In this document: one piece after another, positions 2,979 through 9,544 of the stretch
Numbering within the stretch: the first letter of the stretch is position 1
Layout: every line of letters begins with the position of its first letter
Origin: a virus
IMG/VR virus record: IMGVR_UViG_3300043570_004127
Span: 96,001-160,000 of that record
Strand: one strand, 5' to 3'
DNA: 64,000 nt
Program-made: the position numbers and the translations under genes
The notes under the pieces: generated by a model
Told to the model about the DNA's origin: nothing
The model's database searches: none
Seen by the model: only the letters and a program-made list of their open reading frames with translations

Positions 2979-4286
2979 ATGATGACAAATTGGAACGAAG
3001 TACTCAGATACCTAGAACCCAAGAAGCCTTTGTACTGCCCTGAAGAGGCATCGATTACACAAAGAGTATTCCTTAGAACATACGACATAGAAGCCCTTTT
3101 TGGTGGTGCAGCAGGCGGAGGAAAATCGTCTGCGTTGCTGATGGCTGCTCTCCAATACGTTGATATACCTGGCTATTCTGCAATTCTTTTCAGAAGAACT
3201 TATGCCGACTTGTCTCTGCCTGGAGCCTTGATGGACCGTTTTAAGTCGTGGATTGCAATGCATGACGATGTGCACTGGAACGCAAATAGCTTCATAGCTA
3301 CCTTCCCGTCAGGCGCAAGAATTTCTTTCGGTTACCTAAACAACGTTGGCGACTATCTTCGTTACAAGGGTTCTGAATTTCAGTTTATTGGTATGGACGA
3401 GGTTACCGAAATTAGAGAATCTGATTATCGCTATCTCTTTTCTCGTCTACGTCGTCCATCAACTGGTGAATTATCAAAAGTCCCACTAAGGATGAGGACT
3501 GCGTCTAACCCTGCACCCAATTGGGTTAGACAGAGGTTTATCGTTGAGGGACGTGAGCACGGTCGGATATTCGTTCCATCCATGCTTACCGATAACCCAG
3601 GAATTGACGCTGAGTCATACCGACAGGCGCTATCCGCCCTTGACCCCATTGAGCGCAGACGGCTGGAAATGGGCGACTGGTGGGCAACTAGCCTCGGAAC
3701 GATTTTTGATAGAACAGCATTTGTCCCAATTGACCCGATAGATGTGCCACAAGTCACATCATCAGCTAGGGCTGTTAGATTCTGGGACCTTGCAGCAACC
3801 GAGCCAAGCCATTCAAACCCAAATCCCGACTGGACCGTAGGCACTTTGATGCTTTTCGACCAAGGAATCGCCTATGTCTTGGATGTCAAAAAGGCCCGAG
3901 TAAAGAACGAACGGGTTGAGCAATTAGTGGCTCAAACAGCCTATGAAGACGGCCATACGGTGACGATACGAATGGAGCAAGAACCAGGTTCGTCAGGAAA
4001 GGCCCTAATCGACCAGTATGCCCGCTACATCCTTCCAGGGTATGACTTTGGTGGAATTCGGTCTACTGGGGACAAATTAACTAGGGCACGCCCTTTTTCT
4101 GCGGCCGTAGCCAACGGTAACGTTCGGGTTGTCCAAGCCCCATGGCTATCGGATTGGCTTGATGAATTTTCTGCATTTCCAGAAGCATGCGACCACGACG
4201 ACCAGGTTGACTCTGCCGTTGGAGCTTTTACACATTTAACTGGTTTGGGGTTGCCACAGAGGAGACCAGTCTCTATAATCATCTAG
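2979..4286 (+). CDS. terL: Terminase large subunit
   Basis: Walker A GGAAGGGKS, Walker B FIGMDE, ASNP coupling motif, nuclease motifs WDLA and HDDQVD. Confidence 0.93.
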   Translation: MMTNWNEVLRYLEPKKPLYCPEEASITQRVFLRTYDIEALFGGAAGGGKSSALLMAALQYVDIPGYSAILFRRTYADLSLPGALMDRFKSWIAMHDDVHWNANSFIATFPSGARISFGYLNNVGDYLRYKGSEFQFIGMDEVTEIRESDYRYLFSRLRRPSTGELSKVPLRMRTASNPAPNWVRQRFIVEGREHGRIFVPSMLTDNPGIDAESYRQALSALDPIERRRLEMGDWWATSLGTIFDRTAFVPIDPIDVPQVTSSARAVRFWDLAATEPSHSNPNPDWTVGTLMLFDQGIAYVLDVKKARVKNERVEQLVAQTAYEDGHTVTIRMEQEPGSSGKALIDQYARYILPGYDFGGIRSTGDKLTRARPFSAAVANGNVRVVQAPWLSDWLDEFSAFPEACDHDDQVDSAVGAFTHLTGLGLPQRRPVSIII

Positions 4287-6264: not shown

Positions 6265-6748
6265 TGAGACTTTTGCTCGGATTGTCGCAGAAGATGTAAA
6301 AAACAACGTAACCGAAAGCCAGCGAGAATATTTGATGCTCCCACAGAATCGGGCACGCTGGAAGTTTGCATTAAAAGTCTTGTCCGAAAATATCAGTTCA
6401 CAAATAAAGGACATCAACGCAGACAAGGAGGCCGACAGTATTCGTTATTCGGCACTTGGTTCGCAGGGGAAGTCGATGCTTGTCGAATCAGGTGCTGCCT
6501 ATGACGCGAAGCTCAATAAGATTAGTCGCTTCATGTTCTACGTTGAAAGCCGTCTTAATTTTGTAGAAAACCTCGTTGAGGATGAGTCTGAGATGTCTCG
6601 AAAAGAGCTCTTAGAAGCAGCAATTCACAAGTATCTTGAGATGCTTGATGAGATGGACTTTGAACGCACCGAACTTGACGATGCACTTGAGCACGCATTG
6701 ATTAACAACTCCCTATCTGCGTTTGACTCAGTTACACTTGAAGAGTGA
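6257..6748 (+). CDS. Hypothetical helical protein
   Basis: Start moved to ATG 6257, which overlaps the upstream gene's end. Coupled to the next gene. Confidence 0.6.
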   Translation: MNDETFARIVAEDVKNNVTESQREYLMLPQNRARWKFALKVLSENISSQIKDINADKEADSIRYSALGSQGKSMLVESGAAYDAKLNKISRFMFYVESRLNFVENLVEDESEMSRKELLEAAIHKYLEMLDEMDFERTELDDALEHALINNSLSAFDSVTLEE

Positions 6749-7047
6749 GATATAGGTCAAAGAAAAAAGAAGAAGAGTACAAACTACGAAGACCTCTCGT
6801 TATTCGCTTGCTCGAAGAGCGACCATGGTGCGAGGCATGTTCAAAATTTGCCGAACACGATGAAGTTGTTACCTATACAAGAAACAGAAGCAGCGACATA
6901 CATGAAATTATTCGTCGTTCACAGGGCGGCTCGATACTCGATGAAGAGAATCTCATGTCGGTATGTAGGCCGTGCCACATGAGAATCGGAAACTATCCGC
7001 AGTTGGCTTTTGACCTAGGTCTGGCTAAGCACGGCTGGGAGCGTTAG
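6745..7047 (+). CDS. HNH-like endonuclease / Zn-finger protein
   Basis: CxxC...DIHE....SQGG....ENL..VCRPCH pattern. Confidence 0.7.
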   Translation: MRYRSKKKEEEYKLRRPLVIRLLEERPWCEACSKFAEHDEVVTYTRNRSSDIHEIIRRSQGGSILDEENLMSVCRPCHMRIGNYPQLAFDLGLAKHGWER

Positions 7048-7078
7048 GTTTTAACTAGCTAAGAGTTTTTGGGTATAA

Positions 7079-7115
7079 AAAAACCACCTCACCCACTAGT
7101 GATGAGGTGGTTTTT
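7079..7115. terminator. Bidirectional intrinsic terminator
   Basis: AAAAACCACCTCA...TGAGGTGGTTTTT inverted repeat between the convergent genes 6745-7047 and 7130-7480. Confidence 0.85.
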
Positions 7116-7129
7116 GTTAAAGGGTTTAT

Positions 7130-7480
7130 TTAGCCTTGGATTACGGTGAATGCAACTGTCATGTTTGAACCAGCAGTGCCGGAACCGACAGCCGATACGT
7201 CAAGGCTGACAAGAGCGCCTTGTGTGAAATCGCAGTTGGCTGCAGTAAGCGTGCCTTCGTCTGAAGTTCCTGCAGCTGCGATTGAGAACGCTGCTGCTAC
7301 ATCAGAACCGACTTTAAGGTCTGCGGTAAGTGCTGAACCTGCTGGTGCTGTGGTTACGGCTACGTAAGCGCCGGTGATTCTGCCAGCAAACGGCATGGCC
7401 ATTGTGACGATGCTGCTGGTTGACAATCCACCAGCAATGTTCATTGTGATGGTTGTTGGTGCGAGTACTGCTGTTGACAT
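7130..7480 (-). CDS. Small beta-rich virion/decoration-like protein (paralog of 62699-63115)
   Basis: ATG 7480 with AGGAG RBS. Shares VxTAPxGSxxxxD and xxLDVxxVGS...GxNxTV with 62699-63115. Confidence 0.6.
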   Translation of the reverse strand: MSTAVLAPTTITMNIAGGLSTSSIVTMAMPFAGRITGAYVAVTTAPAGSALTADLKVGSDVAAAFSIAAAGTSDEGTLTAANCDFTQGALVSLDVSAVGSGTAGSNMTVAFTVIQG

Positions 7481-7592
7481 TTTTTCTCCTATGTATAAAT
7501 GGGGTACGCGAAAAAGTATACACCAAACAATCTTGACCAAAGGAGAATAAAAAAAAACGTTTATTTTACGTGAGTGAAAAATGTTGCGGGTG

Positions 7593-7598
7593 TATTGT
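7593..7598 (+). promoter_or_regulatory. -10 element for sRNA-1
   Basis: TATTGT lies 6 nt before the rRNA-antisense 17-mer, the same spacing seen at leaderless genes in this window. Confidence 0.55.
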
Positions 7599-7604
7599 TG
7601 TAAT

Positions 7605-7667
7605 CCTTAGGACCGTTATAGGCGCGAAAGTCGGGTGGGGAAACTCACTCGGCTTTTGCGTTTTTTT
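7605..7667 (+). ncRNA. Candidate sRNA-1: 5' seed antisense to 23S rRNA helix 69, followed by an 18-bp GNRA-capped terminator hairpin
   Basis: CCTTAGGACCGTTATAG (7605-7621) is the reverse complement of 23S CUAUAACGGUCCUAAGG. Hairpin 7622-7661 has 5 G-U pairs and a GAAA loop, then a U-run. Confidence 0.7.
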
Positions 7668-7715
7668 GTTTTACAAACACCATAAAGCTATTTACTTTCG
7701 TAAGGCATCGCTGAG

Positions 7716-7724
7716 TGTTACTCT
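7716..7724 (+). promoter_or_regulatory. Extended -10 (TGn-TACTCT) for sRNA-2
   Basis: TGTTACTCT about 6 nt upstream of the structured segment starting at about 7730. Confidence 0.55.
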
Positions 7725-7729
7725 GAAAT

Positions 7730-7865
7730 CCTCTAGCCGGTAGCCGTTTCCAAGGGAAGAAAGGCAGGTGGTCAAAGAGTCTAGTGATTTTTCACGGCAA
7801 AACAATTCCTCTATGCTCCGAGGACATTGGAAACCCGCCTGATGCTAGAGGTCAGGCGGGTCTTT
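7730..7865 (+). ncRNA. Candidate sRNA-2 / structured leader with a 16S 3'-end complement and a terminator
   Basis: AGAAAGGCAGGTGGTC (7758-7773) resembles the complement of the 16S 3' tail. Long-range pairings 7730-37/7844-51 and 7746-53/7827-34. Terminal hairpin 7833-7861. Confidence 0.6.
7833..7865 (+). terminator. Intrinsic terminator hairpin
   Basis: ACCCGCCTGAT-gctagag-GTCAGGCGGGT followed by CTTT. Confidence 0.7.
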
Positions 7866-7888
7866 GCTGTACGGGGTAGTATTCGTCT

Positions 7889-8404
7889 GTGAAACTACTT
7901 GGACTAGACCTTTCTCTCACTTCTACTGGGTACTGTTTCGACGGTGAGAGCGGCGTTATCGCCACTGGCCTTTTAGGGACCGAACGTCTCGAAGCAGTAA
8001 AAGATGATATTTCGAATTTATTATTAGCTAATAAAATTGATTGTGTTCTTCTTGAAGGCTACTCATTTGCGTCTCGTAGCGGGCAAGCGTTTTCTATTGG
8101 TGAGCTAGGTGGAGTTATTAGACTTTTGATACACAATCTAGGGATAAATCTCATAGAGATACCCCCAACATGTAGGGCCAAGTTTGCAACAGGAAAAGGG
8201 AACGCCTCCAAGAATGAGGTTATCTCAGCAATATCTGCCCGAACCGGAATCGTGTGGGGGAATCCTGGCGCTGATGATAAATGTGATGCTTGGATTCTTG
8301 AAGAGATGGGTCTTGCTCGTCTCGGCAAACAAAGATATTCTTGGCCAGACGTAAACATGTCTGCTCTGGAGAAGATAGATTGGACTCCTCTCGAAGGGAA
8401 TTAA
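7889..8404 (+). CDS. ruvC: RuvC-like Holliday junction resolvase
   Basis: LGLDLSLTSTG, LLEGY, ELGGVIR, KFATGKGNASK, DxCDA. Confidence 0.85.
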   Translation: MKLLGLDLSLTSTGYCFDGESGVIATGLLGTERLEAVKDDISNLLLANKIDCVLLEGYSFASRSGQAFSIGELGGVIRLLIHNLGINLIEIPPTCRAKFATGKGNASKNEVISAISARTGIVWGNPGADDKCDAWILEEMGLARLGKQRYSWPDVNMSALEKIDWTPLEGN

Positions 8405-8407
8405 TAC

Positions 8408-8746
8408 GTGGACCGCAGCAAACCGATTAGCCAAGTTGACATCGAGCAAGAGCTTCTTCGCCTGATGGATATTTTGGAAAACGAAACAGAAGCATTCGAA
8501 CAACTCGCTGTTGATGCAGCCAAAAAAGAAGCAATGTTCAAGGGTGAATGGGCAAAGCAATACCTTTCCGCAAAGGGTTCAATCAAAGAGCGTGAAGCAT
8601 GGTCGGACTACAAGCTTGCAGACCAGATATTGGATTACAAAATCGCAGAAGGCCTCGTAAAAGCAAAGCGTGAAAAACTTCTTTCATTACGTACGAGCAT
8701 CGATGCACTGCGCACACTGAACGCAAACGTGCGAGCACAAGTATGA
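8408..8746 (+). CDS. Hypothetical coiled-coil protein
   Basis: 112-aa helical ORF coupled to both neighbours. Confidence 0.6.
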   Translation: MDRSKPISQVDIEQELLRLMDILENETEAFEQLAVDAAKKEAMFKGEWAKQYLSAKGSIKEREAWSDYKLADQILDYKIAEGLVKAKREKLLSLRTSIDALRTLNANVRAQV

Positions 8747-9309
8747 GTAAAAAGTATGTAGGACCAGAGTCTATTTCAATTGATGTAAAAACCCTGAACG
8801 AACCGGAGTGGCGAGCCACACATGTTCTCAAACCAGACCTGGAATTACTCCAACAATCAGTAGTTGATTACGGTCTCCTATCACCAATCATCGTCCAAAA
8901 AAAAACACTGCAAATAATCGACGGTTATCATCGTTGGATTATTTTCCGTTCTAATAAAGAAATCATGTCACGACATGAGGGGAAGATTCCTGCTCTCATC
9001 TTTGACATCGACGAGATAGATGCAATGATGATGCACCTGCGGCTAAACCGAGGGCGTGGGAACATATTTGCCAATAACATGTCAAGAATTATCAAAGATG
9101 TCTATTACAGCGAGAAGTATGACATCAACGAAATCCAAGAACTTTTGAACATGAACGTCATTGAAGCAGACATGATGCTCGATGGCTCACTCTTAAAGAG
9201 TAGAAAAGTCAAGGACCATACGTACTCAAAAGCATGGGTTCCAATTGAGGTTCCATCTGGCAAAGTAGAGAAAGCAGTTCTTGAACGACCTCCAAACGTT
9301 GACCGCTAG
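8743..9309 (+). CDS. ParB/Srx-like nuclease-domain protein (IbrB-like)
   Basis: LQQSVVDYGLLSPIIV...IIDGYHRW...LNRGRG. Confidence 0.8.
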   Translation: MSKKYVGPESISIDVKTLNEPEWRATHVLKPDLELLQQSVVDYGLLSPIIVQKKTLQIIDGYHRWIIFRSNKEIMSRHEGKIPALIFDIDEIDAMMMHLRLNRGRGNIFANNMSRIIKDVYYSEKYDINEIQELLNMNVIEADMMLDGSLLKSRKVKDHTYSKAWVPIEVPSGKVEKAVLERPPNVDR

Positions 9310-9364
9310 CAGACGTAAGTAAAATGGTGTAAACTTTGGTAAAACTTGTCCACAGTGAGGTTTT

Positions 9365-9544
9365 ATGCCAACACCAAGCAATGCAACCGATAGCGAACTA
9401 ACGCCTCCTACAAGAGCAAGAATTTTGCCATCCCGAGACAGGAATCAGCGTCCTAGTTTTTTGCGTCGCGCTGCGGCTTCAGGCCTAAATCGTCTAGCTA
9501 ATATTGTTTCGCCACAGCAGCGGCCAGCCGCTGGCACAGCGTAA
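9365..9544 (+). CDS. Small basic protein (59 aa)
   Basis: Hand translation MPTPSNATDSELTPPTRARILPSRDRNQRPSFLRRAAASGLNRLANIVSPQQRPAAGTA, with GAGG RBS and an upstream TAAACT -10. Confidence 0.5.
   Translation: MPTPSNATDSELTPPTRARILPSRDRNQRPSFLRRAAASGLNRLANIVSPQQRPAAGTA

Follow-up and report, generated by a model that had tools for sequence, protein, structure and literature searches.

Small RNAs of the RybB and OmrA/B type, as well as those encoded by prophages, act in trans, with a seed at the 5' end and a stem-loop at the 3' end. For the takeover of translation by phages, proteins and tRNAs are the known means, and the known phage small RNAs target mRNAs, other small RNAs or replication. 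The locus reported here lies in a 64-kb stretch of DNA from an uncultured tailed phage (the window, to which all positions refer) and resembles the RybB/OmrA/B-type RNAs in possessing a candidate promoter of its own, a short, unpaired and conserved 5' seed and a stable 3' hairpin, here followed by a U-run, within about 60 nt. In seed and target, however, it departs from them. RNAs of the RybB/OmrA/B type address mRNAs or other small RNAs via seeds of 7–12 nt and usually with the help of Hfq, whereas the phage seed comprises 16–17 nt, is invariant and complements a functional centre of mature 23S rRNA. Actinobacteria, which are the likely hosts, are not known to possess Hfq.

Antisense pairing with a large-subunit rRNA transcript is documented for Helicobacter pylori, where an RNA antisense to the 23S-5S transcript shows pairing in vivo and RNase III processing (PMC6582327). 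That RNA is host-encoded, acts in cis opposite the precursor leader and is involved in rRNA maturation, whereas the phage RNA would act in trans and matches helix 69/70 within the mature rRNA. A cis-antisense RNA to an rRNA precursor of the H. pylori type was rejected for the present locus, as it is phage-encoded among portal, terminase and sheath genes. The same target helix has been addressed with peptide nucleic acids (PNAs), and according to Kulik et al. (2017), cited in PMC12828698, an antisense oligomer against helix 69 can block translation and bacterial growth; these PNAs are man-made, short and of a different backbone, while the phage element is a natural RNA. In addition, MazF-mt3 and MazF-mt6 of Mycobacterium tuberculosis act in the same neighbourhoods, namely 23S helix/loop 70 and the 16S anti-Shine-Dalgarno tail (PMC5408214), but these are proteins cleaving UUCCU (1939–1943), while the phage RNA would bind 1914–1930 without cleaving. 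A phage small RNA antisense to 23S rRNA was not found in the literature. Likewise, cultured phages gave no DNA match to positions 6500–9500 or 7560–7900, the seed plus the first hairpin bases had no match in 185,579 bacterial and archaeal species genomes, and Rfam showed no match at or above gathering score in the whole window, with noise alone at E values up to 10 in 7400–8000. The statement of the first-pass annotation that no phage small RNA of this type has been described is thus in line with the literature, Rfam and the cultured phages.

The source phage and its anti-23S RNA element

The source is a 79.5-kb IMG/VR virus record (IMGVR_UViG_3300043570_004127), judged 54% complete, which belongs to an uncultured tailed phage. 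Its genes include those for RuvC, an exonuclease, portal, large terminase and tail sheath. The closest cultured phages are those of Gordonia and Brevibacterium when comparing the terminase (39–42% identity) and those of Streptomyces, Gordonia and Mycobacterium when comparing RuvC (not more than 41% identity). An actinobacterial host would fit the TAnnnT promoters lacking a -35 box, the leaderless ruvC, the hairpins without U-runs and the complementarity of a second RNA to a 16S tail ending CCUUUCU, while a WhiB gene as further host clue was not found in the 79-kb record. The host 23S sequence was assumed from the universality of the target. A Shine-Dalgarno motif is present at 32 of the 63 phage starts, compared to a background of 12%. 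Besides, nine of the 63 predicted window proteins match PF13640 (2OG-Fe(II) oxygenase), more paralogues than is usual in a single phage, and the window also encodes two glutathione-peroxidase-like proteins and one radical SAM/SPASM protein.

The following features can be deduced at the element and in its vicinity:

7130–7480, minus strand: divergent upstream gene encoding 116 aa, with its own Shine-Dalgarno motif and no family match
7593–7598, plus strand: -10-like promoter box TATTGT, read from the sequence, followed by a spacer of six bases (7599–7604) to the seed
7605–7621, plus strand: seed CCTTAGGACCGTTATAG, 17 nt, exact complement of 23S rRNA C1914–G1930
7622–7661, plus strand: hairpin of 18 bp with a GAAA loop (7640–7643) and five G-U pairs, directly adjoining the seed
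7662–7669, plus strand: U-run (seven T, then G), the tail of an intrinsic terminator in this phage
7731–7868, plus strand: second small RNA, with a -10-like box at 7719–7724, a conserved block at 7757–7773 and a terminator at 7833–7861
7889–8404, plus strand: gene of a RuvC-like Holliday-junction resolvase (phrog_159, E 1.4e-30), the constant downstream neighbour in the loci sharing this layout (class I, see below)

The -10 hexamer located six bases before the 17-mer, as well as the 18-bp hairpin with its GAAA loop, five G-U pairs and subsequent U-run, were seen as the first-pass annotation had described them. Terminator scan and folding extend the stem to 20 pairs (7620–7663). The annotation had further deduced a plus-strand RNA from the G-U pairs, and this assignment holds in view of the fold energies, as the plus strand reaches -30.8 kcal/mol (z -5.3), with none of 200 shuffles being as good, versus only -11.9 kcal/mol (z -1.1) for the minus strand. 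In the fold model, the seed is predicted to be unpaired, with a probability of at least 0.75 at positions 1–15. Transcription probably starts at or beside the first seed base. At the element, no -35 box passes the sigma-70 scan, and in relatives a TAnnnT hexamer with varying inner bases is found 6–7 nt upstream of the seed. Assigning the hairpin as intrinsic terminator to an upstream gene was rejected, since the gene at 7130–7480 is on the minus strand and begins rather than ends beside the element.

The anti-23S element belongs to an optional cassette, which is located between the divergent 116-aa gene and ruvC. Among relatives, some carry both RNAs, some only one of the two (either the anti-23S RNA or the second RNA) and some none; in the loci L242 and L255, for example, the cassette is missing and the divergent gene directly adjoins ruvC. 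The conserved block of the second RNA (7757–7773) complements the last approximately 15 bases of a Gram-positive-type 16S 3' tail with one bulge and one G-U pair, where the sequence used for this match is what we take to be the 16S 3' end of Gram-positives. Block and terminator are the only conserved parts of the second RNA in 40 distinct relatives. The downstream ruvC is apparently leaderless, with a TAGTAT box (7877–7882) located 6 nt before the GTG start at 7889, an arrangement which is kept in relatives and is typical of Actinobacteria. In four loci bearing only the anti-16S RNA (L189, L191, L192, and L193), an HNH-endonuclease-like gene replaces the divergent 116-aa gene.

Conservation of seed and stem in related phages

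The exact 17-mer is present in at least 114 viral contigs, and matches to the 17-mer without the following G amount to 15. When sorting the loci into classes by flank and context, only L093 among the 114 matches listed turned out to be real 23S rDNA. Among the same 114 matches, 89 loci share the layout of the window (class I), 13 represent a second layout (class II), and three further layouts are found at 3, 2 and 1 loci (classes III to V, respectively), with another 5 loci residing inside tRNA arrays that were left unclassified and outside the family. As searching with the 17-mer fixes the seed, relatives were resampled without it, via a hairpin pattern and via the RuvC protein. The 24-nt hairpin pattern retrieved 35 loci, of which 4 bear T at seed position 1 and the remaining 31 the exact seed. 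Searching with the RuvC protein yielded 80 loci at 60–96% identity, 74 of which possess the element; the seed is exact in 43, bears one change in 29 and two changes in 2, and is absent in 6 of these loci. With a second RuvC sample, started from a divergent member, the element was found in 123 of 160 loci of both samples, corresponding to 51 distinct versions. In these versions, the majority-base frequency is 0.98 at seed positions 2–17, compared to 0.79 in the first stem bases and 0.54–0.66 in the 20 nt upstream. The first-pass annotation had named conserved flanks around a non-conserved seed as an observation speaking against its proposal; the opposite was found, with the seed being the most conserved part.

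Conservation of the hairpin resides in its pairing. In 46 distinct sequences, 99.4% of the cells of 14 in-register stem pairs are paired, although all 14 pairs vary, 12 of them with changes on both sides. None of 500 stem shuffles reaches the observed values, and pairing falls to 32–55% when sliding the stem partner. Searching contigs for the seed followed by a covarying hairpin, as initially proposed, has revealed a conserved family with a covarying stem. Loop and upper-stem lengths vary by 1–10 nt among relatives, which excludes a coding reading; specifically, a small ORF at 7570–7743 was rejected, as hairpin lengths differing by 1, 7, 9, and 10 nt break its frame. Taken together, seed-independent sampling, constancy of the seed and stem covariation argue for a conserved gene and not a chance match, and we regard the window element as very probably a real conserved RNA gene. 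From the description as antisense seed plus stabilising terminator, the part that stands is an unpaired antisense seed with a hairpin behind, while the hairpin is not generally a terminator, as a clear U-run follows it in only 7 of the 51 distinct relatives. In every member, however, the seed abuts the stem without a spacer, and describing the hairpin as a structural module, conserved in this fixed position, is more appropriate. The near-unchanged seed in related phages suggests that an RNA acts on host ribosomal RNA.

Besides class I, at least four unrelated architectures bear the same 17-mer within longer complementarity (20–28 nt) and with their own hairpins behind. In class II (e.g., L027, L014, and L060), the 5' part is longer and the 3' tail of the RNA pairs with some of the seed; the class II member L060 complements 23S positions 1914–1941, i.e., 28 nt with one G-U pair. 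A complementarity of 23 nt is present in L067, located between hairpin and terminator behind a gene. L024, again behind a gene, and L007 complement helix 69 over its full length with a bulge of one base, the latter locus showing a TAGAAT box 6 nt upstream. In the flanking DNA compared, these other architectures have no protein in common with the RuvC-linked class I. Chance could yield isolated exact 17-mers in a large collection, but the extensions make chance unlikely for these loci. The use of one seed by several unrelated RNA architectures suggests that the strategy was acquired repeatedly.

Some of these loci show further peculiarities. In class II, the anti-23S RNA is located behind a small zinc-ribbon-like gene (L036 on the reverse strand, oriented 8700–9060; likewise L092, L014, and L060) and is followed by a further conserved stretch, which bears promoter-like boxes and seems not to code for protein, so that a cluster of small RNAs may be encoded here. 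In L024 (reverse strand, oriented 3527–3620), a long gene ends with its stop codon directly ahead of the anti-helix-69 segment and a strong terminator follows the segment; this element could be a small RNA from a 3' untranslated region. Matches of 22–25 nt to the same 23S stretch are also found in tRNA arrays of large viral contigs (L002:2618–2642 and L026:10979–11001, also L006, L064, and L100), in sense rRNA orientation relative to the tRNA genes; they may serve either as antisense RNAs or as mimics of helix 69. Interpreting the L002 and L026 matches as group I intron flanks is unsupported, as Rfam finds tRNA arrays only and no intron.

Complementarity to 23S rRNA and possible action on the ribosome

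Aligning 7605–7621 to 23S rRNA, as had been suggested, gave the perfect antisense match that was claimed: the reverse complement of the 17-mer is located at 1916–1932 of the annotated 2906-nt E. coli 23S gene copy, which we take to correspond to canonical C1914–G1930. Within 23S rRNA, this stretch takes in the helix 69 loop, the 3' strand of that helix and the beginning of helix 70. Complementarity goes no further than the 17-mer on either side, and a 23S rRNA gene fragment was rejected as its source, since similarity is absent from both flanks. When shuffling the window, matches of 13–16 nt against E. coli rRNAs are reached; hence, a 17-nt match in a single 64-kb window, taken by itself, barely exceeds chance and the case rests on conservation across phages. 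Neither does the phage itself offer a second target, as no other site with up to two mismatches was detected in the window and the 79-kb record contains one exact site. Computed energies favour the seed-target duplex (-28.1 kcal/mol) over the helix 69 hairpin (-6.4 kcal/mol), with a net gain of -21.9 kcal/mol after opening local structure in a 75-nt piece of 23S rRNA. The target takes part in base pairs within mature subunits, and many bacteria carry an N3-methyl group on U1915, by which pairing with seed position 16 would be weakened.

The few seed changes observed are mainly of the kind expected from RNA-RNA pairing with the sense rRNA. Pairing is kept as wobble by the changes from C1 to U (with G1930), A8 to G (with U1923), C9 to U (with G1922) and A16 to G (with U1915), the first occurring in several hairpin backgrounds and the second in two, whereas U15 to C, restricted to one clade, and C1 to A are pair-breaking. 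Counted by inspection and without a tree, about nine change events are wobble-compatible and about three are not, while compatibility would be expected for just 8 of all 51 single changes that the seed allows. An adaptation of A8 to G to a host 23S variant was rejected, as U1923C is found in only 13 scattered of the 185,579 species genomes; this rarity indicates that the change is a wobble and not a host match.

From these observations, a mode of action can be proposed. The gene from 7605 to about 7668 on the plus strand would encode a trans-acting phage RNA of about 60 nt, the first 16–17 nt of which stay unpaired and are followed by the stable hairpin without a spacer. The seed would pair with C1914–G1930 of host 23S rRNA whenever this is not locked in 70S ribosomes, i.e., in nascent rRNA, late pre-50S particles and free 50S subunits. 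Pairing would begin at the exposed loop of helix 69, beside the RNA's own hairpin where coaxial stacking could occur, and from there extend along the helix 69 3' strand into helix 70. With helix 69 not formed, bridge B2a could not be established and the bound 50S subunit would be kept from subunit joining. Binding to nascent, immature or free 50S is considered feasible in view of the duplex energetics and of three findings from other systems: helices 67–71 are disordered in late 45S precursors (PMC3737534), MazF-mt6 cuts helix 70, adjacent to the target, in free 50S but not in 70S (PMC5408214), and a helix 69 PNA blocks translation and growth of E. coli (Kulik et al., 2017, cited in PMC12828698). 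Binding to 70S, on the other hand, is unlikely. Host 23S rRNA is a likely partner of the RNA, while inhibition of helix 69 function or assembly via free or immature 50S is an effect that we put forward more cautiously, as quite possible but short of probable. Counting against inhibition, the phage itself needs ribosomes and, with about half of its genes bearing a Shine-Dalgarno motif, an anti-16S RNA would hinder phage translation, too. Likewise, the cassette is dispensable, being absent from some related phages, and the pair-breaking U15 to C of one clade speaks against the proposed pairing.

Several other readings have to be weighed against interference with helix 69. By pairing with helix 69/70 of free subunits and so covering or restructuring this region, the RNA could act as a shield, keeping host nucleases from destroying ribosomes during infection, with the second RNA likewise covering the 16S tail; MazF-type RNases of toxin-antitoxin or abortive-infection systems or decay by RNase E and RNase PH would be the candidate nucleases. 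The two phage RNAs do map beside two known nuclease entry points: in an actinobacterium, MazF-mt3 cuts 23S helix/loop 70 and the 16S anti-Shine-Dalgarno sequence (PMC5408214), and in E. coli, RNase PH acting on the 16S 3' end and RNase E cutting behind 23S residue 1942 are the enzymes that initiate rRNA decay (PMC4931109). Moreover, the 16S 3' terminus is protected by hibernation factors (PMC7913689), the complementarity of L060 reaches 1941, and an optional cassette is what would be expected of a counter-defence gene. Nevertheless, we consider protection unlikely, as the class I seed ends at G1930, 8–12 nt short of UUCCU (1939–1943) and residue 1942, thus leaving these sites uncovered, and as opening of helix 69 would itself disable the subunit. 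To our knowledge, a nuclease specific for helix 69 has not been described either. It is the helix 69 part of the complementarity that stays invariant, which counts against a shield and is the reason for ranking interference with helix 69 first. The constant abutment of seed and hairpin, by which a 17-bp duplex would be stacked on 18–20 bp to give a quasi-continuous helix of about 35 bp in every member, could alternatively point to RNase III cleavage and degradation of new or free 23S rRNA, serving host shut-off or nucleotide scavenging, similar to the cut of the 23S-5S precursor paired with the cis-antisense RNA in Helicobacter pylori (PMC6582327). Such destruction is quite improbable, however, since the phage needs ribosomes and the precedent concerns a precursor leader, not the functional centre of mature rRNA.

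The partner might also be something other than rRNA, i.e., a host or phage mRNA, a seed-reading protein or, with the element as cis-regulatory leader, ruvC, in which case the rRNA match would stem from a captured rDNA fragment or be incidental. The class I element is always upstream of ruvC and most members are without a U-run, making read-through possible. Then again, a -10 box 6 nt ahead of the start codon belongs to ruvC itself, four architectures unlinked to ruvC show the same or longer 23S complementarity, seed variants are wobble-compatible and no other complementary site is present in the phage. Furthermore, a 16-mer remaining fixed while RuvC differs by 40% would need an equally fixed partner, so that a partner other than rRNA is rather improbable. 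Highly improbable is a function at the DNA level, either as a homing endonuclease site shared with 23S rDNA or as a guide directing the neighbouring RuvC-fold nuclease to host rDNA. In favour of this, it can be argued that the 17-mer presumably lies within the I-CeuI recognition site, that a RuvC-fold gene adjoins and that HNH genes are near in some relatives. But only 17 bp of the approximately 26-bp I-CeuI site are present, a hairpin with strand-specific G-U pairs and seed variants of the wobble type argue for an RNA, RuvC is of the 171-aa resolvase type with no extra domain, and in other classes the RNA is found without RuvC. In addition, every class in which signals can be recognised is oriented antisense to rRNA, and targeting of DNA would not depend on this orientation. 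A guide RNA of a TnpB/Cas12/TIGR-Tas-type RuvC nuclease was also rejected, as the neighbour is a 171-aa resolvase, RuvC and RNA each occur alone and the RNA is present as a single copy.

Returning to the preferred interference with helix 69, a broader picture can be drawn, which we offer as a tentative and still somewhat doubtful whole. Phages, probably of freshwater Actinobacteria, would employ an RNA-only anti-ribosome system gripping 23S helix 69/70 and the 16S tail, by which subunits are locked out or nuclease entry points protected, with the 23S stretch having been targeted independently by unrelated architectures. As the target is universal, this idea is directly testable with synthetic RNA and ribosomes of model bacteria. 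If true, the RNA would be a natural counterpart of the synthetic helix 69 antisense antibacterials, and pairing of a phage RNA with a universal functional centre of mature rRNA would represent a new route of host manipulation or counter-defence.
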